The notes under the pieces are model-generated. The model did no database searches. It had not been told where the DNA came from and saw only the letters and a list, made by a program, of their open reading frames with translations. The position numbers and the translations under genes are program-made. 44,228 nucleotides of DNA, taken from sequence record PV040721.1, one strand, 5' to 3'. The stretch comes from Escherichia phage BUCT825. Shown piece by piece: positions 10,634 through 16,617 of the stretch. Each line of letters opens with the position of its first letter. The first letter of the stretch is position 1.

Positions 10634-10819
10634 ATGTTTAAGAAGGGTCAGTTGGCTAAAACGAAACGCGGCGGACAGTACGTAATAGTTACCCAGGACG
10701 AAAATGAATACAGTATCGCTGTAGATGTATGGGGTCTTATACGAAAGAAACATGGTTACGCCTTCCGCGATAATTTAAAACTCATCGGCAACAATTTTAA
10801 ATTCAAAGGGGCGAAGTGA
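10634..10819 (+). CDS. hypothetical small protein (61 aa)
   Basis: ATG with SD GAGGAG; first gene after promoter. Confidence 0.5.
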   Translation: MFKKGQLAKTKRGGQYVIVTQDENEYSIAVDVWGLIRKKHGYAFRDNLKLIGNNFKFKGAK

Positions 10820-11064
10820 TGTTTAATCATATAATTAAATACGACTATCGCGATGGGGTTAAACTCGCCAAACATGATATAGAAACATGGTGCGGCTGTA
10901 AGCCTCAATTTAGTGATTGGTTGTTTCAGGACGCACAGCACGCCCTGTTAGTTATGGAGCAGGGAGGGAGAATTATGCCGTGCAAAAGTTGCCTGAAAAA
11001 TATAATCAAAACGGCATCGAATCATGATGCTCGTGCCGACGACTCTGAGGGAGGTTGCCGTTAA
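10819..11064 (+). CDS. hypothetical Cys-rich protein (81 aa)
   Basis: ATG overlaps upstream stop (TGATG); CGC...CKSC motifs. Confidence 0.5.
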   Translation: MFNHIIKYDYRDGVKLAKHDIETWCGCKPQFSDWLFQDAQHALLVMEQGGRIMPCKSCLKNIIKTASNHDARADDSEGGCR

Positions 11065-11255
11065 TGAAAATTCGTATAACTGATGTTGATTATGTTCTTC
11101 CGCCTGGTTATGGCGATCATTCTTTGCGCCACTTTGGTGTTTCAGTAGGTGATGAGTTTGAGGTTACGTCCTGTAACGACTACGGGTGCATAGTCAAACA
11201 TTGCGGGGAGGAACTGTACGTGCGTAGACGTGAGTATGTGATTATTGAGGACTAA
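11064..11255 (+). CDS. hypothetical protein (63 aa), paralog of next gene
   Basis: MKIRITD...FGVSVGD; start overlaps upstream stop. Confidence 0.5.
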   Translation: MKIRITDVDYVLPPGYGDHSLRHFGVSVGDEFEVTSCNDYGCIVKHCGEELYVRRREYVIIED

Positions 11256-11258
11256 GTT

Positions 11259-11414
11259 ATGAGAATCCGTATAACTGACCGCAGGCTTATAGATTTCGGT
11301 ATCTCGGTAGGTGATGTTTTTCTGGCGTTCAGCAGCAACCATTATGGTTTTATGATTGAGTACAAAGGGTCGTTATTGTTCGTGTATCGGGATGAATGCG
11401 AGGTTATGGTATGA
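11259..11414 (+). CDS. hypothetical protein (51 aa), paralog of previous gene
   Basis: Manual translation MRIRITDRRLIDFGISVGDVF... shares MxIRITD and FGxSVGD with upstream gene. Confidence 0.4.
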   Translation: MRIRITDRRLIDFGISVGDVFLAFSSNHYGFMIEYKGSLLFVYRDECEVMV

Positions 11415-11605
11415 GTCCGTATAACGAATTCCGCTTACGCCGTCTGATTGGCGGTCTGCGCGCCGCCGAGTTTGGTGTTGAATGCTGGGAAAAGGCGAAG
11501 TACACCCCGTTGAAGTCGTGGCATTTGGCTCATGCTAAGGAGGTAGCACAGTACCGTGAGTACAAGTTAAACAGTTTTCTTAAGCACCACGGGGTTGAGT
11601 TATGA
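11411..11605 (+). CDS. hypothetical protein (64 aa)
   Basis: ATGA overlap with upstream stop. Confidence 0.45.
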   Translation: MSPYNEFRLRRLIGGLRAAEFGVECWEKAKYTPLKSWHLAHAKEVAQYREYKLNSFLKHHGVEL

Positions 11606-11745
11606 GAGAGGCATTCGAACGGTGGGCCATCGTCGAGGGTCTGCCGGTTAACAAGGGTTCAAAGAAAGAGTACCTGAACGTTAAGACACGTCTCGCGTGG
11701 CGGGCGTGGAAAGCTGGTGTTCAAACTGCGATGAATACGAGGTGA
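11602..11745 (+). CDS. hypothetical protein (47 aa)
   Basis: Manual translation MREAFERWAIVEGLPVNKGSKKEYLNVKTRLAWRAWKAGVQTAMNTR; ATGA overlap. Confidence 0.35.
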   Translation: MREAFERWAIVEGLPVNKGSKKEYLNVKTRLAWRAWKAGVQTAMNTR

Positions 11746-11748
11746 GAT

Positions 11749-11949
11749 ATGGGTGAGTGGATTAAGTGTAGTGAGATGCTGCCGGGCAACGGTAGTGCAG
11801 ATAAAGAATTCCTGGTGTATGAAACGTTAAATAACGCAGTTCAACACGATTATTACATCGTTCCTGATGACGGGAGAAAGCCTTTCTGGAATCACTACGA
11901 TAAGTACGTGACTCACTGGATGCCGTTACCTGAGCCGCCGGAAGTGTGA
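11749..11949 (+). CDS. hypothetical protein (66 aa)
   Basis: ORF with ATG start; W- and P-rich small protein. Confidence 0.45.
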   Translation: MGEWIKCSEMLPGNGSADKEFLVYETLNNAVQHDYYIVPDDGRKPFWNHYDKYVTHWMPLPEPPEV

Positions 11950-11981
11950 TGTTCAATAGTTTGGGATTTTACTGAGTGACT

Positions 11982-12037
11982 TACGCTGCTACACAGCAGC
12001 GTACAACTTTAACTTAGTGTCGTCAAAAGGCGACACT
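11982..12037 (+). other. Two tandem stable hairpins in an intergenic gap (TACGCTGCT-ACAC-AGCAGCGTA and AGTGTCG-TCAAAAGG-CGACACT)
   Basis: Perfect 9-bp and 7-bp stems read directly; no strong U-tract. Confidence 0.4.
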
Positions 12038-12083
12038 TTCACCAAACGCAACAATCGAAGCGACTATTGCAGGAGACGCAACA

Positions 12084-12254
12084 ATGAAACTGAATGACAT
12101 CGTAACCTGGACCGGTAGAAACGGAGAAAAGCGATTCGGGCTTATTGTTGCGTCAGACGGCAACAAGTACCGTGTTATGCGCTGGTGCCAGTGGGCCAGA
12201 CGCCCGAGGTACTACTGGATTCGTGGCGAACGATTATCTTTAAAACACCAATAA
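12084..12254 (+). CDS. hypothetical protein (56 aa)
   Basis: Manual translation MKLNDIVTWTGRNGEKRFGLIVASDGNKYRVMRWCQWARRPRYYWIRGERLSLKHQ; SD AGGAG. Confidence 0.4.
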   Translation: MKLNDIVTWTGRNGEKRFGLIVASDGNKYRVMRWCQWARRPRYYWIRGERLSLKHQ

Positions 12255-12261
12255 AATTTAC

Positions 12262-12290
12262 TTGCACACTAAGATAGAATAGGCTACTAT
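12262..12290 (+). promoter_or_regulatory. Early-type promoter (-35 TTGCAC, 17-bp spacer, -10 TACTAT followed by TCA)
   Basis: TTGCACACTAAGATAGAATAGGCTACTATTCA. Confidence 0.6.
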
Positions 12291-12322
12291 TCATTTACAC
12301 AGACGAGACAGAGGAAAACGAA

Positions 12323-12508
12323 ATGTTAGAAGTTAAAGTTACAAAAAGAGACAGTGAACTGACTAAAGGCATCTTCAAAGTAGGAACCGTTATAGACCTG
12401 GATTTAGATGACATGGTTGTGTACCACGGTGGGATTGAGTGGAACGTGGCGCGGACCGACAACGGCTTCAAGTTACCAGGAAGTGAGACTCACTTTGCAG
12501 CAGTTTGA
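12323..12508 (+). CDS. hypothetical protein (61 aa)
   Basis: ATG with SD GAGGAAAACGAA context. Confidence 0.45.
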   Translation: MLEVKVTKRDSELTKGIFKVGTVIDLDLDDMVVYHGGIEWNVARTDNGFKLPGSETHFAAV

Positions 12509-12683
12509 AATATGGTTCCGGAGCCGGTTTGGGTTCGCCCCGGCCCGGAAAGACAATGGCTACGCTGAACCAGAGGTTCAGCGGATGTGGGTACGGTGGA
12601 AGGAGAAACAGCGTGAACACGAATGGCAATTTTACGGAGTCGGGTTTCCATGTATGTGCATTAAATGTGGGTTAAAGAAATGA
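12408..12683 (+). CDS. hypothetical Cys-containing protein; overlaps previous ORF by 100 nt, true start unresolved
   Basis: Alternative frame open across stop of 12323-12508; C-terminal CMCIKCG. Confidence 0.3.
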   Translation: MTWLCTTVGLSGTWRGPTTASSYQEVRLTLQQFEIWFRSRFGFAPARKDNGYAEPEVQRMWVRWKEKQREHEWQFYGVGFPCMCIKCGLKK

Positions 12684-12883
12684 CCAGCATCTTATTTATC
12701 TGGGTATTGTCGGCGGGCCAGATGCAACTAGCGGCATCGGAAACGTTTTACTCGATGGAGGCGTGCCAGTCAGCGGCACGCGCTGCAGAGAACGCGCACT
12801 TCTTGTTTCAGGGCGACAAGCCTAACGATTCAGAGGTACGCGCTATCTGCTCACCTAAGCGACTTGGTAAACAGGAGAAGTGA
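12680..12883 (+). CDS. small protein with predicted N-terminal signal peptide (67 aa)
   Basis: MTSILFIWVLSAGQMQLAAS hydrophobic leader; ATGA overlap. Confidence 0.45.
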   Translation: MTSILFIWVLSAGQMQLAASETFYSMEACQSAARAAENAHFLFQGDKPNDSEVRAICSPKRLGKQEK

Positions 12884-12885
12884 TT

Positions 12886-13149
12886 ATGGTACAGAGATAT
12901 TTATTACAAGGCGGTTTAATAGGGCCGCACGACGATGGTGACTGGGTTGGTTACGAAGACTACGCGGAACTTGAGCGTAAGTTCAATGAACTCAGGACAT
13001 GGCGTACGCAGATGCTCAATGCCGCTTTCGACTTTTTAGCGTGGGCAGAAAAAGCGGAAGCCGAGTTACAGAAATACAAAGACCAGTTCCCTGATTACGT
13101 CGAGTGCGCGAACTGTGGGTCAGTTACACATGTGGAGGGGGTGGAGTGA
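12886..13149 (+). CDS. hypothetical protein (87 aa)
   Basis: ATG with SD AGGAG. Confidence 0.5.
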   Translation: MVQRYLLQGGLIGPHDDGDWVGYEDYAELERKFNELRTWRTQMLNAAFDFLAWAEKAEAELQKYKDQFPDYVECANCGSVTHVEGVE

Positions 13150-13151
13150 TT

Positions 13152-13367
13152 ATGGTTCGTAAATATGAAGCGCGAGGGACTGAATTAGGCGGGGACGCAT
13201 TCTACGAAGATTGGGTAGAGGTGGTTCGCTACGAAGATTACAAGGCGCTAAAGACCCATGCCGATGCTATGTGCGAGGCCATGTGTTTGTATGATTTGGG
13301 TGAACGTGTTAGTTTCGAGCCATACATAAATTATACTGAATGGCTGTTGAGTGAGGACGATGTATGA
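13152..13367 (+). CDS. hypothetical protein (71 aa)
   Basis: ATG with SD GGAGGGGG. Confidence 0.5.
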   Translation: MVRKYEARGTELGGDAFYEDWVEVVRYEDYKALKTHADAMCEAMCLYDLGERVSFEPYINYTEWLLSEDDV

Positions 13368-13657
13368 GCCTTGCAACTGACATCCTGAAACGCAGCGGCC
13401 TTGCGCCGCTGTCACCGAGAGCGAACACCAGAATACACAAGCGCCGCCGTAATGCGCTGTACCCGGAGATTCAGGACAGACGCAAAGCTGTCCGCGCCTG
13501 TGGATTCCAGAACGGGAAGGCCGTAAATCTCGGTGAGTTTAAAACACAGGAACGCGCAGCAATCGCTAACCGGTTATTTAATTACTGGAAATCGCTGGGG
13601 TACGATGATATTCCGACGAAACCGCAGAGACGACAATACATCTGGAGACACAAATGA
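13364..13657 (+). CDS. small basic protein with AP2-like DNA-binding signature (97 aa)
   Basis: NGKAVNLGEFKTQERAAIANRLF resembles the AP2/HNH-associated DNA-binding motif. Confidence 0.45.
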   Translation: MSLATDILKRSGLAPLSPRANTRIHKRRRNALYPEIQDRRKAVRACGFQNGKAVNLGEFKTQERAAIANRLFNYWKSLGYDDIPTKPQRRQYIWRHK

Positions 13658-14094
13658 CGACTATCGCGTTCGACGGAAAGACAATGGCCTGTGACACACG
13701 TGTTGTGTGCGGGGATAACTACTACAACACAGATACTAAGATATACGAAAACGATACTTATGTTATCGGGGTAGCGGGTGACGCTGGAGTTGGTACTATG
13801 CTTATCGACTGCCCGTATATCCTCCAGGCCAGACATTATGATTTTGATTTCGAGGCCCTAGTGTATGAGAAAGACGCGGAAAAGGTGTATAAAGTCGCGT
13901 TTTATAAATCATGGGATTGTGCACTTAGTTCAGTTATTCCGGTTGCCGATGCGTACGCTGCCGTTGGGTCCGGTTCCCCTTATGCACTGGCGGCTATGGA
14001 ATGTGGGTATTCGGCGCATGGCGGTGTAGCCGTTGCATCGAAGTTTGACACTAACACCGGCGGCAAGATTATTACCAAACAACTATTAGGATAA
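13654..14094 (+). CDS. HslV/proteasome-beta-like Ntn-hydrolase family protein (146 aa)
   Basis: N-terminus MTTIAFDG (Thr directly after Met, as in HslV MTTIV); GVAGDAG and VGSGSPYALAAM resemble HslV GFAGG and IGSGGPYAQAA; alignment done by eye. Confidence 0.5.
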   Translation: MTTIAFDGKTMACDTRVVCGDNYYNTDTKIYENDTYVIGVAGDAGVGTMLIDCPYILQARHYDFDFEALVYEKDAEKVYKVAFYKSWDCALSSVIPVADAYAAVGSGSPYALAAMECGYSAHGGVAVASKFDTNTGGKIITKQLLG

Positions 14095-14108
14095 TTCCTA
14101 ACCGTGCT

Positions 14109-14148
14109 ATCCTCCAGTTACTGCATACTTAACACGCACCTGGAGGAT
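14109..14148 (+). promoter_or_regulatory. RNA hairpin sequestering the holin Shine-Dalgarno (ATCCTCCAG ... CTGGAGGAT)
   Basis: 9-bp perfect inverted repeat; 3' arm contains the GGAGGA SD sitting 6 nt before the TTG start. Confidence 0.5.
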
Positions 14149-14153
14149 TCATC

Positions 14154-14462
14154 TTGGATAAATTTACTGAAACAGTGACGGGGTGGCTTCTCGCTGCCGC
14201 ACTGGTCGGTGGATTGGTCGGACTAAGACAACATAAAAAGTCTATATCCGGGCCGATTGACGGACTGGTATTTCTCCTCACCGGCTTCGCGTGTGCCATT
14301 TTCGGTGCACCTCTTGCTGCTCAATGGTTCGGTATTACCGGTGAGCGCGAGATAGCTGGCCTCGGATTCATCATTGCCATTCTCTGGATGCCTATCTATT
14401 CCCGCCTTTCTGGCATCGTATCGGGCGGCGATATTGCCCACCCAGGAGGACCGCATGACTGA
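14154..14462 (+). CDS. holin (102 aa, about 3 predicted TM segments), TTG start
   Basis: Hydrophobic segments LLAAALVGGLVGL, LVFLLTGFACAIFGAPLAA, LGFIIAILWMPIY; no in-frame ATG before the first TM; strong SD. Confidence 0.6.
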   Translation: MDKFTETVTGWLLAAALVGGLVGLRQHKKSISGPIDGLVFLLTGFACAIFGAPLAAQWFGITGEREIAGLGFIIAILWMPIYSRLSGIVSGGDIAHPGGPHD

Positions 14463-14727
14463 GCTATTCTGGTTTGTCGTAATGCTGGCAATGGGCGCTT
14501 CGTCCCTGTTCAACGTGTATAATGAACGCGTGGACGACGGGATATTCGGTCGGGTGCTCTATATCCTGTCCGCTATTGTCTGCGCCGCCGGATGTATTCA
14601 CCTGTTACAGGGCGGCATGTCACCTACGCTGCCCGAGACATTAATCACATTAGTTGCGCTGCGCCAGATTCGTCAGGCGTGGCTGTCGTACGGAGGGCAT
14701 AAGCGTGTCTCGAAACATTTCAGATAA
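14456..14727 (+). CDS. second small membrane protein (about 90 aa, 2 TM): holin/antiholin-like
   Basis: ATG at 14456 with SD AGGAGG, overlapping holin stop; TM segments FWFVVMLAMGASSLF and LYILSAIVCAAGCIHLL. Confidence 0.5.
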
Positions 14728-15238
14728 TGGACTTACCGCAGATAAGCTGCGCGAGGTTTTACACTACGACCCCGATACCGGAGTTTTTACATGGAAAGCT
14801 ACACGTGTGCACAATGCTCGGGCGGGAAGTGAGGCTGGCGCCAACCATTGTGCAGGCTATCGCTCCATAGCCTTCGGTGGGAAGCGGTACTTGGCGCATC
14901 GTCTCGCTTGGCTATACATGACAGGGGAATGGCCCAACTCCCTAATAGACCACATAAACGGCGATGGTCGTGATAATAGATTCTGTAATTTACGTGAAGC
15001 CAACAAATCCGAAAACGGATGCAACAAAGGGCCAAGAAAGGACAGCAAATCCGGTATTAAGAACGTTATGTGGCAGAAGCAACAAGGAGGATGGTACGTT
15101 CAATTAAAAATACATAAGATTAAGTATTTTTACGGATACTTTGCGGACCTAGAACTAGCCGCGCTAGTTGCCGAAGAAGCTAGAGAGAAGATACACGGGG
15201 TTTTCGCGAACCATAAATTACGGGAAGGTGCTTTATGA
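14654..15238 (+). CDS. HNH homing endonuclease with AP2-like domain (likely start GTG 14705)
   Basis: HRLAWLYMTGEWPNSLIDHINGDGRDNRFCNLREANKSEN (HNH); conserved N-terminal LTADKLREVLHYDPDTGVFTW; stop overlaps endolysin ATG (ATGA). Confidence 0.8.
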   Translation: MRCARFVRRGCRTEGISVSRNISDNGLTADKLREVLHYDPDTGVFTWKATRVHNARAGSEAGANHCAGYRSIAFGGKRYLAHRLAWLYMTGEWPNSLIDHINGDGRDNRFCNLREANKSENGCNKGPRKDSKSGIKNVMWQKQQGGWYVQLKIHKIKYFYGYFADLELAALVAEEAREKIHGVFANHKLREGAL

Positions 15239-15717
15239 GAAACATTAGCAACAATGGCATCAAATTCACCGCAGCGTTTGAGGGGTTCCGCGGAACTGCG
15301 TATCGTGCTACGCCAAATGAGAAGTACCTGACTATTGGGTACGGTCATTATGGGCCAGACGTAACGCCAGGCAAGACCATCACCCCGGGACAAGGCCTCC
15401 TGTTACTGAATCGTGATATGGCTAAGGCCGTAGCTGCGGTTGACGCAGCAGCGCACCATTCACTGACGCAGGCGCAGTTTGATGCTGTTTGCGACCTGGT
15501 CTATAACGCGGGCGCTGGCGTGATTGCTGCTACTACGGGCACGGGTAAGGCGCTGCGTTCTGGTGATATCACGACGCTGCGGGCTAAGCTGGCGCTGTTC
15601 ATCAACCAGAATGGTAAACCGTTACTTGGTCTGCGTCGCCGTACTGCGGGTCGTCTGGCGTTGTTCGACGGTAAACAGTGGCAGGAGGCGGAGGCTATCG
15701 GGAGGGCTGTTAAATGA
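15235..15717 (+). CDS. endolysin, GH24 (T4/lambda-type lysozyme), 160 aa
   Basis: FEGFRGTAYRATPNEKYLTIGYGH catalytic region resembling T4 lysozyme E...D...TIGIGH. Confidence 0.85.
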   Translation: MRNISNNGIKFTAAFEGFRGTAYRATPNEKYLTIGYGHYGPDVTPGKTITPGQGLLLLNRDMAKAVAAVDAAAHHSLTQAQFDAVCDLVYNAGAGVIAATTGTGKALRSGDITTLRAKLALFINQNGKPLLGLRRRTAGRLALFDGKQWQEAEAIGRAVK

Positions 15718-15843
15718 TGGACGAATACGAAGGCGTTTAGTAAACTTACATCACGCTGCTTGTGCTTGCATACTAAGCCCTGGTAAACCTGAAGCAGCAG
15801 CCCAGGCGGTGGAGACTGCGTAGGGTTCAGGGGCTTATGCCCG

Positions 15844-15874
15844 AAACCCGGACCGCGAATCCGGGTTTTATTTT
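15844..15874 (+). terminator. Intrinsic terminator (AAACCCGGA-CCGCGAA-TCCGGGTTT followed by TATTTT)
   Basis: Perfect stem plus U-rich tail downstream of endolysin. Confidence 0.7.
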
Positions 15875-15947
15875 ACCAATTGACACCTAAGACTAATCAG
15901 ACGATACTTAAATCACCTCCTGTTCCATCCCTCTGCTCTCCAGTTTT

Positions 15948-15979
15948 ATCCCGGCCCTGACCCAGCCGGGATTTTTTTT
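15948..15979 (+). terminator. Second intrinsic terminator (ATCCCGGC-CCTGACCCA-GCCGGGAT followed by TTTTTTT)
   Basis: 8-bp stem followed by T8 run. Confidence 0.75.
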
Positions 15980-16001
15980 ATCTGTTTTCTGTAATGACTA
16001 G

Positions 16002-16030
16002 TTGACTATTATCCTCGACCCTATTATATT
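16002..16030 (+). promoter_or_regulatory. sigma70-like promoter (-35 TTGACT, 17-bp spacer, -10 TATATT)
   Basis: TTGACTATTATCCTCGACCCTATTATATT upstream of the 16065 gene block. Confidence 0.55.
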
Positions 16031-16064
16031 TACTTCATCGACAACGAGAACGGAGTAGAGAGAA

Positions 16065-16262
16065 ATGGGCAACGTATCGACGATAGAAATAACCGAAGAA
16101 CTCGAAGTTAAATGTATCGCATCAGTTATAGGGAATGGTTCGGTGGAAAAACTACAGATGAGGGCTGCTGCGGGCTACATACGCAGGGCTAATAGCGCGC
16201 AGACTGATGTTTTACGTAAACGTTACCTCGTGAAAGCGTTAGAAATACTGGAGAATAACTAA
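16065..16262 (+). CDS. hypothetical protein (65 aa)
   Basis: ATG with SD GGAG. Confidence 0.5.
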   Translation: MGNVSTIEITEELEVKCIASVIGNGSVEKLQMRAAAGYIRRANSAQTDVLRKRYLVKALEILENN

Positions 16263-16411
16263 TGAAAATTACAGATATCGAAGCATTCAAAGACGCACAA
16301 CTGATGGCACGCATCGCCGTTAGCAACCTGAGCAACAGCATCCCAGCGGCTGCATTCTGGTTCGCCGCGATGCAGACACTGAAAGCAGCTTATGCAGGAG
16401 AGAAGAAATGA
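16262..16411 (+). CDS. hypothetical protein (49 aa)
   Basis: Manual translation MKITDIEAFKDAQLMARIAVSNLSNSIPAAAFWFAAMQTLKAAYAGEKK; start overlaps upstream stop. Confidence 0.4.
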   Translation: MKITDIEAFKDAQLMARIAVSNLSNSIPAAAFWFAAMQTLKAAYAGEKK

Positions 16412-16617
16412 TCGACGTTATCGTTGGTTGCATCTATAAGAGTAATTACTCGTGGGGTGATGTAGGTGAAGTTAGTTTCATTGTAACTGCGGTTGGGTTG
16501 GACCACGTACTTATCGCCGACTACCCATTGATGAAATTCAATGAATCCTATTCAGAATATTGTGTTGGTAGAAAGGAGTTCGAGGCTAAATTTAAGTTTG
16601 CAGGAGAGAAGAAATGA
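16408..16617 (+). CDS. hypothetical protein (69 aa)
   Basis: ATGA overlap; C-terminus FAGEKK encoded by repeated junction. Confidence 0.5.
   Translation: MIDVIVGCIYKSNYSWGDVGEVSFIVTAVGLDHVLIADYPLMKFNESYSEYCVGRKEFEAKFKFAGEKK

Follow-up and report, generated by a model that had tools for sequence, protein, structure and literature searches.

A conserved hairpin predicted to bury the Shine-Dalgarno sequence of a TTG-started holin gene in Kagunavirus-type coliphages

The window analysed here is the whole stretch of 44,228 nucleotides (nt) of Escherichia phage BUCT825 (PV040721.1), and the element in question is a hairpin in front of the first of its two holin genes. This gene is a member of phrog_2359 at the head of a holin-holin-endolysin cassette, its function being predicted by family match; the family carries the label 'class II holin-like' in Kagunavirus and Dhillonvirus annotation, and Pfam assigned the protein no family. 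The 3′ arm of the hairpin holds the Shine-Dalgarno (SD) sequence of the holin, and RNA carrying both arms would have the holin ribosome-binding site locked. The features concerned are the following:

13654-14094, + strand: gene for an HslV-like (HslV/proteasome-like) peptidase, phrog_1040, directly upstream of the holin
14075-14178, + strand: regulatory block with candidate promoter, hairpin, SD, start codon and first 8 codons, the most conserved stretch of the alignment of related loci
14109-14117, + strand: 5′ arm (anti-SD) of the inverted repeat, ATCCTCCAG
14118-14139, + strand: loop of 22 nt, with a predicted transcription start at about 14120
14140-14148, + strand: 3′ arm, CTGGAGGAT, holding the SD GGAGGA at 14142-14147
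14154-14462, + strand: first holin gene, 102 amino acids, TTG start, phrog_2359 (E 3.7e-32)

The arms ATCCTCCAG and CTGGAGGAT are 9 nt each, 100% complementary and 22 nt apart, and they form a stem of 9 base pairs (bp), five of them G-C. An earlier reading of the letters alone (the original prediction) had described this perfect 9-bp inverted repeat, and its coordinates (14109-14117 and 14140-14148) and sequence are exact. It had likewise placed a GGAGGA SD in the 3′ arm, where the motif is indeed present at 14142-14147, separated by a 6-nt spacer from the TTG at 14154-14156. The frame upstream of the holin is closed by an in-frame TAA at 14130-14132, and the sole internal methionine of the 102-residue protein is residue 79; hence there is no in-frame ATG before the first hydrophobic segment, as had been claimed. 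The frame opens TTG GAT AAA TTT ACT GAA ACA GTG, with the in-frame GTG at codon 8 (14175) lacking an SD. The N-terminus aligns with those of ATG-started Dhillonvirus holins (MDKF.. against MDKL..). This homology, together with the presence of the TTG in 36 of 36 related loci, makes TTG 14154 the genuine start of the gene and bears out its earlier designation.

The annotation of the holin is inconsistent in several GenBank and other public records as a result of the TTG start. The gene is unannotated in LSPA1 (L038), shortened in TU03 (L115; coding sequence 416-688 of the locus) and stretched upstream to 432 nt in EcoPhCCP1 (L117). In a KW1E-like contig (L103) an open reading frame (ORF) of 129 amino acids has been called across the promoter and terminator.

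RNA folding of 14095-14175 gives −18.4 kcal/mol (z = −3.3), and none of 200 shuffled sequences was as stable. The predicted accessibility of the SD varies with the 5′ end of the transcript. When the transcript begins between 13950 and 14109, pairing of the SD exceeds 98% and its opening costs 6-10 kcal/mol, and the pairing of the SD with the anti-SD arm proposed in the original prediction is thus recovered on transcripts that contain both arms. For 5′ ends at or beyond 14115 the SD is about 55% unpaired and opens at 2.5-3 kcal/mol, so that long and short transcripts differ by a predicted 3.5-8 kcal/mol or so. Perfect 9-bp inverted repeats with loops of 3-40 nt can be placed 15 times in the window, where base-4 odds predict about 6, and the opening cost of the holin SD (5.8 kcal/mol in a −70 to +35 context) comes about 8th among 86 candidate starts with a median of 2.4. 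As such repeats are not rare and the cost is only about the eighth highest, the case for a function rests on the position of the hairpin over the SD, on conservation and on covariation, not on the repeat alone. Rfam 15, which covers riboswitches, RNA thermometers and other families, gave no match at gathering score anywhere in the window, and within 13900-14400 it returned only chance-level matches (E at least 3).

Three further structural candidates around the SD were considered and rejected. A second copy of the anti-SD sequence, TATCCTCCAG(G) at 13818-13828, has 10 nt of complementarity with 14139-14148 and could in principle act as a long-range lock. It lies in the peptidase gene, 310 nt upstream of the SD arm, in a region that is only about 71% conserved and that is absent in relatives without the HslV-like peptidase gene; for these reasons the lock was rejected, and the copy is likely to be a matter of chance. 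Coupling to the upstream stop codon was discarded since 14 nt separate the stop from the 5′ arm here as against about 32 nt in other lineages, which leaves no conserved geometry for melting by a ribosome. In a downstream stem at 14164-14178, within the first codons, the pairing is not kept by sequence variants.

A megablast search with 13600-15800 matches 160 phage records, nearly all of them Kagunavirus (Guernseyvirinae; K1G/K1ind-type coliphages) at 80-95% identity, and by these matches the source of the window is a Kagunavirus-type coliphage. Conservation was examined in an alignment of 36 distinct related loci (680 nt) drawn from IMG/VR and GenBank. Column identity is 97-100% across 14104-14178 as compared to 80-90% in the flanking coding sequence, and identity of the holin protein falls to about 78-80% among the same relatives. 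None of the loci shows any change in either arm, in the spacer or in the TTG, while the common polymorphisms of the block fall at 14089 (G/A), 14101 (A/C) and 14107 (C/G). The conserved block begins at about 14075, exactly at the end of the mosaic upstream genes, and it is kept with either upstream gene, the HslV-like peptidase or an unrelated small ORF. The peptidase gene is itself mosaic, being absent from K1G/K1ind-type relatives, where the unrelated small ORF takes its place, and its last 6-7 codons run into the conserved block.

The 104-nt block is found at 90% identity or more in 120 GenBank phage records. Among these the 3′ arm is invariant throughout and the sole variant of the 5′ arm is A14116G, which turns an A-U pair into a G.U pair; it occurs in TU03, PK1 and EcoPhCCP1, in two different stem backgrounds. 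Changes in the loop lengthen the stem to 13 bp in LSPA1, TU03 and PK1 and to 11 bp in L010, SHAK7693 and EcoPhCCP1, by two routes that place either a U-A or a G-C at the tenth pair. The core pairs are kept in all variants. As the arms are complementary and invariant and the variants keep or extend the pairing, a function maintained independently of any U-tract is indicated, and the comparison supports a real hairpin under purifying selection. One position of the loop, 14133, lies outside the stem and carries a C that is private to the window, with T in all 35 other loci (TTAACAC against TTAATAC). Although it is assigned to Autographiviridae/Kayfunavirus and bears a myovirus name, the SHAK7693 record (vB_EcoM_SHAK7693, OR594180.1; locus L116) has a Kagunavirus-like lysis region, with both the peptidase gene and the regulatory block.

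Searches by tblastn and profile detect holins of the same family at 45-49% identity in Dhillonvirus and at 28-39% in a KW1E-like group. A hairpin lies directly before these holins as well, and its 3′ arm carries an SD-like purine run that ends 5-10 nt before the start codon. The representative structures are:

Dhillonvirus hairpin: arms AGUCCCAGUGAG and CUUACUGGGACU, 6-nt loop, one G.U pair, then U6 and AUG
L105 hairpin: a 12-bp variant
KW1E hairpin: arms UCCCCGGA and UUCGGGGA, one G.U pair, 7-nt loop, then U8 and AUG
L109 hairpin: arms AUCCCCAAA and UUUGGGGAU, then U7CAUC and AUG
L113 hairpin: arms AUCCCCC and GGGGGAU, then U8GCU and AUG

Two motifs, CUAACAC in the loop and UUCAUC in the tail, are found again in the Kagunavirus element, and on this account the hairpins are taken as homologous across the clades. 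In an alignment of the arms only, anchored at the outermost pair of each clade, 93.7% of cells form standard pairs as against 73.4 ± 4.0% when the letters of the 3′ arm are shuffled (0 of 500 shuffles reached the observed value), a count biased towards pairing by the picking of the arms from each clade's own predicted hairpin. Slid registers of the same alignment reach at most 60.7% pairing. Both sides have changed in six of the nine pairs between clades, a level reached in 27 of 500 shuffles. Duplex energies agree with this between-clade co-variation of the arms: the cognate 5′ arm is the best partner of the 3′ arm in seven of eight cases, at −12 to −21 kcal/mol for cognate arms and −5.5 to −11 kcal/mol for arms from another clade. 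A covariance-model realignment, intended to give an unbiased register across clades, was left unused, as it repeated the wrong register of the MAFFT alignment and had an admixture of minus-strand hits. In more distant homologues from other genome contexts (L108, L112, L110 and L111) the SD is free and comes after a separate terminator; Arno162 has no comparable hairpin before its holin. The composite element is therefore regarded as confined to the Kagunavirus, Dhillonvirus and KW1E-like siphophages.

In the relatives the hairpin has the features of an intrinsic terminator. Terminators were called at L054 1374-1396, L109 1466-1490 and L035 1403-1432, ending 5-10 nt before the holin ATG, with stems of −11 to −19 kcal/mol followed by T6-T8. 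In contrast, no terminator was called by the scan tool at the window hairpin. Its tail UCAUCUUG has a T-score of 1.5 as compared to 2.7-5.4 for the homologous hairpins of relatives; scored as TCATCTTG, the tail reaches 1.52 and the window's own terminators 2.6-3.3, so that the U-tract is too weak here and sufficient in the relatives. The loop of 22 nt is also well outside the 3-8 nt of a short-loop terminator. By these sequence features the Kagunavirus hairpin is one that has lost its terminator character, with a long loop and a degenerate U-tract. The Kagunavirus SD has the full consensus GGAGGA versus GGGA or GGGGA in the relatives, and the start codon is TTG versus ATG.

Candidate promoter elements overlap the hairpin in all three clades. 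In the window they are:

14086-14091, + strand: candidate −35 element TTAGGA (TTAAGA in 13 of 36 relatives), a weak match at 3-4 of 6 positions
14105-14113, + strand: predicted extended −10 element TGcTATCCT, with the hexamer TATCCT at 14108-14113

The two hexamers are 16 nt apart, and the −10 candidate overlaps the 5′ arm by 5 nt. The extended −10 is invariant in the 36 loci save for the unconstrained 'n' at 14107 (C in 17, G in 19). On a rough sigma-70 position weight matrix, the author's own and built on consensus frequencies, the combination TTAGGA/TTAAGA-16-TGnTATCCT (14086-14113) scores 7.3-9.8 bits. It is the only promoter candidate common to all Kagunavirus sub-lineages. Transcription would start 7 nt after the −10, at about 14120, and in all clades the predicted start falls within a few nucleotides of the end of the core 5′ arm.

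The relatives have stronger sites in the same place. In three divergent sequences of the KW1E clade promoter-like calls abut or overlap the hairpin (L054 1345-1373, L109 1438-1467 and L113 852-880), the sites being TTGACC-17-TACTAT, TTGACC-18-TAACAT and TTGACC-17-TATCAT. Conserved hexamers and spacing combined with unrelated spacer sequences are the classic signature of a real promoter. The last three bases of the Dhillonvirus extended −10, TGaTATAGT, are the first three of the 5′ arm, and polymorphisms among these phages affect the spacer and the loop but spare the hexamer and both arms. In Dhillonvirus, L105, KW1E and L109 the same weight matrix ranks the site in the hairpin first among the candidates of the 200 nt upstream, at or above the 99.99th percentile of window sites. 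With an SD-containing terminator 5-10 nt before the ATG, a productive holin mRNA in these relatives almost has to start inside the hairpin. As the Kagunavirus site is weak when taken alone, the argument for a promoter there rests on the geometry shared across clades and on this reasoning from the relatives.

Two other promoter candidates in the region were set aside. A near-consensus site at 14045-14072 (TTGACA-16-GATTAT) was considered as the cassette promoter and lies inside the peptidase gene. It is unconserved: in about half of the relatives the TTG of its −35 reads TCG (TCGACA) through a synonymous Phe change (TTT/TTC), and it is absent from lineages without the HslV-like peptidase gene. 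It is probably a by-product of coding sequence, and it may still fire in this phage. The motif GATAAT at 14090-14095 lacks a conserved −35, and L023 (GATAAA) and LSPA1 (GATGAT) do not preserve it.

Small + strand genes upstream of the holin extend from about 10635 to 14094, and a terminator scan found no terminator-like site from about 11470 to the holin. Transcripts from these same-strand genes would form the hairpin. The arrangement favoured here, for which the chances appear evenly balanced, is of the kind known from gene e of phage T4: the hairpin would silence only read-through transcripts, while the holin's own transcripts would escape the lock. Transcripts from the embedded promoter would begin where the 5′ arm ends or within the loop, at about 14120, and would lack the anti-SD arm. 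On this own leader of about 34 nt the strong SD would be exposed, and the rate of translation would be set by the weak TTG start. Read-through transcripts would be terminated in Dhillonvirus and the KW1E-like phages and kept translationally silent for the holin in Kagunavirus, where the U-tract appears to have decayed and the loop to have grown, leaving insulation mainly to SD locking. The timing of lysis would then be set by the embedded promoter and the TTG start, if the promoter is real. The original prediction had proposed a damping of holin translation by the stem. Its basis is retained, in that the hairpin is conserved and predicted to bury the SD, but if the embedded promoter is real the damping may concern read-through transcripts only.

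A wider and somewhat more tentative proposal is that the hairpin represents a three-in-one module of about 45 nt, conserved over at least three groups of 42-45 kb coliphages (Kagunavirus, Dhillonvirus and KW1E-like). It would combine the −10 of the lysis promoter, a terminator, and the SD with a U-tract as its spacer, and would insulate the holin from early transcription both transcriptionally and translationally; in Kagunavirus the terminator half would have decayed, leaving a pure translational lock together with a consensus SD and a TTG start. Literature searches turned up no description of the element for either Kagunavirus or Dhillonvirus.

Several observations weigh against silencing restricted to read-through transcripts, in addition to the bias of the arms-only count given above. 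Whereas the late promoters of T4 depend on gp55, an ordinary sigma-70 promoter offers no obvious means of switching in time. The Kagunavirus candidate is weak, with TATCCT at 4 of 6 and TTAGGA at 3 of 6 positions, and its 7.3 bits correspond to the 99.94th percentile and to about 260 equally good chance sites in the genome. The conserved −10 candidate and its TG bases are all explicable by the stem or its outer extension. The site at 14045-14072 is stronger than the embedded candidate, and its transcripts would carry the whole hairpin. A search of the literature found no mapping of transcription start sites for Kagunavirus or Dhillonvirus. Covariation within the genus is not significant (185 of 500 shuffles were as good, and 10 of 13 pairs never vary), and SD burial of like size is seen at a few other candidate starts in the window.

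The best placed of the alternatives is constitutive damping, in which all holin mRNAs come from upstream promoters with the full hairpin, and the stem and the TTG together slow the accumulation of holin and set the time of lysis. The SD is predicted to be buried on every RNA with both arms, the TTG and the stem are invariant, the same-strand upstream genes enter the holin with no terminator-like site between, and the near-consensus site at 14045-14072 would yield full-length leaders. A precedent exists in lambda, where lysis time is set by the rate of holin translation (bioRxiv 10.1101/2025.05.14.654169). This reading is a live rival but less likely than the favoured one. The hairpin of the relatives is a strong terminator before the ATG and would allow almost no holin to be made unless transcription started inside it. 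Natural variants take the stem from −14 to −21 kcal/mol (in LSPA1) with no compensating change in SD or start codon, which is hard to fit to a finely tuned rate, and the 14045 site has lost the TTG of its −35 in about half of the relatives and is absent where the peptidase gene is missing.

More doubtful still is a leaky or decaying terminator or attenuator of the upstream operon, the overlap with the SD being a by-product of compaction with no translational role. The homologous hairpins of Dhillonvirus and the KW1E-like phages do behave as terminators by sequence, and the separate terminator and free SD of L108, L112 and L110 suggest a terminator ancestry. In the window, however, the loop of 22 nt, a T-score of 1.5 as compared to 2.6-5.4 for real terminators and the failure of the scan to call a terminator make this account improbable, and it leaves the upkeep of pairing after loss of the U-tract unexplained.

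A role of the hairpin in mRNA stability or processing, 5′-terminal or internal (as a shield against RNase E or as a site of RNase cleavage), is very improbable. Stem-loops at the 5′ end are known as mRNA stabilisers, and the hairpin would lie near the 5′ end of any transcript from the candidate starts at about 14079-14103. But no promoter for such a 5′ end is conserved across lineages, a 9-bp stem is too short for RNase III, and the constant use of the SD as 3′ arm in three clades is left unexplained. A DNA operator for a dimeric regulator of the lysis promoter would account for a perfect palindromic 9-mer pair at a candidate promoter but is scarcely credible, as the arms co-vary between clades in which their spacing is anything from 3 to 22 nt, and as the G.U-type variants (A14116G, and the G.T of Dhillonvirus and KW1E) keep RNA pairing and break DNA symmetry.

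The remainder of the lysis cassette and its surroundings comprise the following features:

14455-14727, + strand: second holin gene, phrog_2508 holin (E 2.7e-34)
14654-15238, + strand: HNH endonuclease ORF, Pfam HNH_3 (3.1e-14) and phrog_99 (1.3e-69)
15235-15717, + strand: endolysin, last gene of the cassette, Pfam Phage_lysozyme (5.5e-27) and PHROG endolysin
15844-15868, + strand: canonical terminator hairpin AAACCCGGA-7-TCCGGGTTT followed by TATTTT, closing the lysis cassette

The second holin has a consensus SD of its own, GGAGGA at 14445-14450, within the 3′ end of the first holin gene, and its ATG (14455) overlaps the TGA stop of the first holin at 14460-14462 (ATGACTGA). This SD and start-stop overlap suggest that the two holins are translationally coupled. 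The HNH ORF lies between the second holin and the endolysin and overlaps both genes. It is missing in most relatives, whose alignments to the window are split in two pieces with 71-77% coverage, and it looks like a homing-endonuclease insertion into the lysis cassette. Past the cassette, a second terminator stem-loop at about 15950-15972, followed by T8, is interleaved with two strong promoter-like sites, TTGACA-17-GATACT at 15880-15908 and TTGACT-17-TATATT at 16002-16030. The two terminators and two promoter-like sites of 15844-16030 mark the boundary of a transcription unit right after the lysis cassette. The scan tool called no terminator-like site in 12000-16500.

Lysis timing is a central trait of phage fitness, and an infection in which holin is made too early is doomed. 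Kagunavirus and Dhillonvirus members are common among the coliphage candidates for therapy, and their gene regulation has hardly been studied. If the proposal is correct, it would explain how small virulent siphophages keep a holin safe directly behind same-strand genes, and the element would represent a compact and portable insulator design that unites promoter, terminator and ribosome-binding site in about 45 nt. The principle of T4 gene e would, moreover, extend to phages that are unrelated to T4 and depend on the host sigma-70. The invariant 80-nt block would be an obvious target for the engineering of lysis timing.

Hairpins that sequester the SD at phage lysis genes are already known from T4 e and lambda S. 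In lambda a stem-loop (sdi) overlaps the SD upstream of the start of holin gene S and modulates the access of ribosomes (bioRxiv 10.1101/2025.05.14.654169). A stem-loop overlapping the SD upstream of a holin start is likewise present here, but the holin families are unrelated, and sdi splits initiation between Met1 (antiholin) and Met3 (holin) whereas there is a single TTG start here. Dual-start control of the lambda S type was considered and rejected, as no second start lies near codon 1 and the GTG at codon 8 lacks an SD. The terminator tR′ of lambda, located upstream of S and read through with the help of Q, also resembles the present element in that a hairpin before a holin could stop or filter incoming transcription. 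It differs in that the hairpin of the window has a 22-nt loop, a degenerate U-tract and no terminator call, and in that the terminator of the relatives overlaps the SD itself. The hairpins that sequester the ribosome-binding sites of the homing endonucleases mobE (phage Aeh1) and I-TevI concern another gene class and other phages and have no terminator ancestry.

In T4, long read-through transcripts of e, soc, 49 and I-TevI form an inhibitory hairpin, and transcripts from a promoter within the 5′ strand of the hairpin lack it and are translated (PMC3014915). The T4 switch is temporal and depends on gp55-dependent late promoters (TATAAATA), whereas the candidate here is an extended −10 of the sigma-70 type with no known switch. 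The target is a holin here and the endolysin in T4, and the present case is predicted from sequence. A further difference is that the hairpin in related phages doubles as an intrinsic terminator whose U-tract forms the spacer between SD and start codon. Common to the two systems are a lysis gene behind a hairpin in which the SD or start codon of long transcripts is hidden, by prediction in the present case, and the same predicted geometry, with the −10 over the 5′ arm and the transcription start in the loop.

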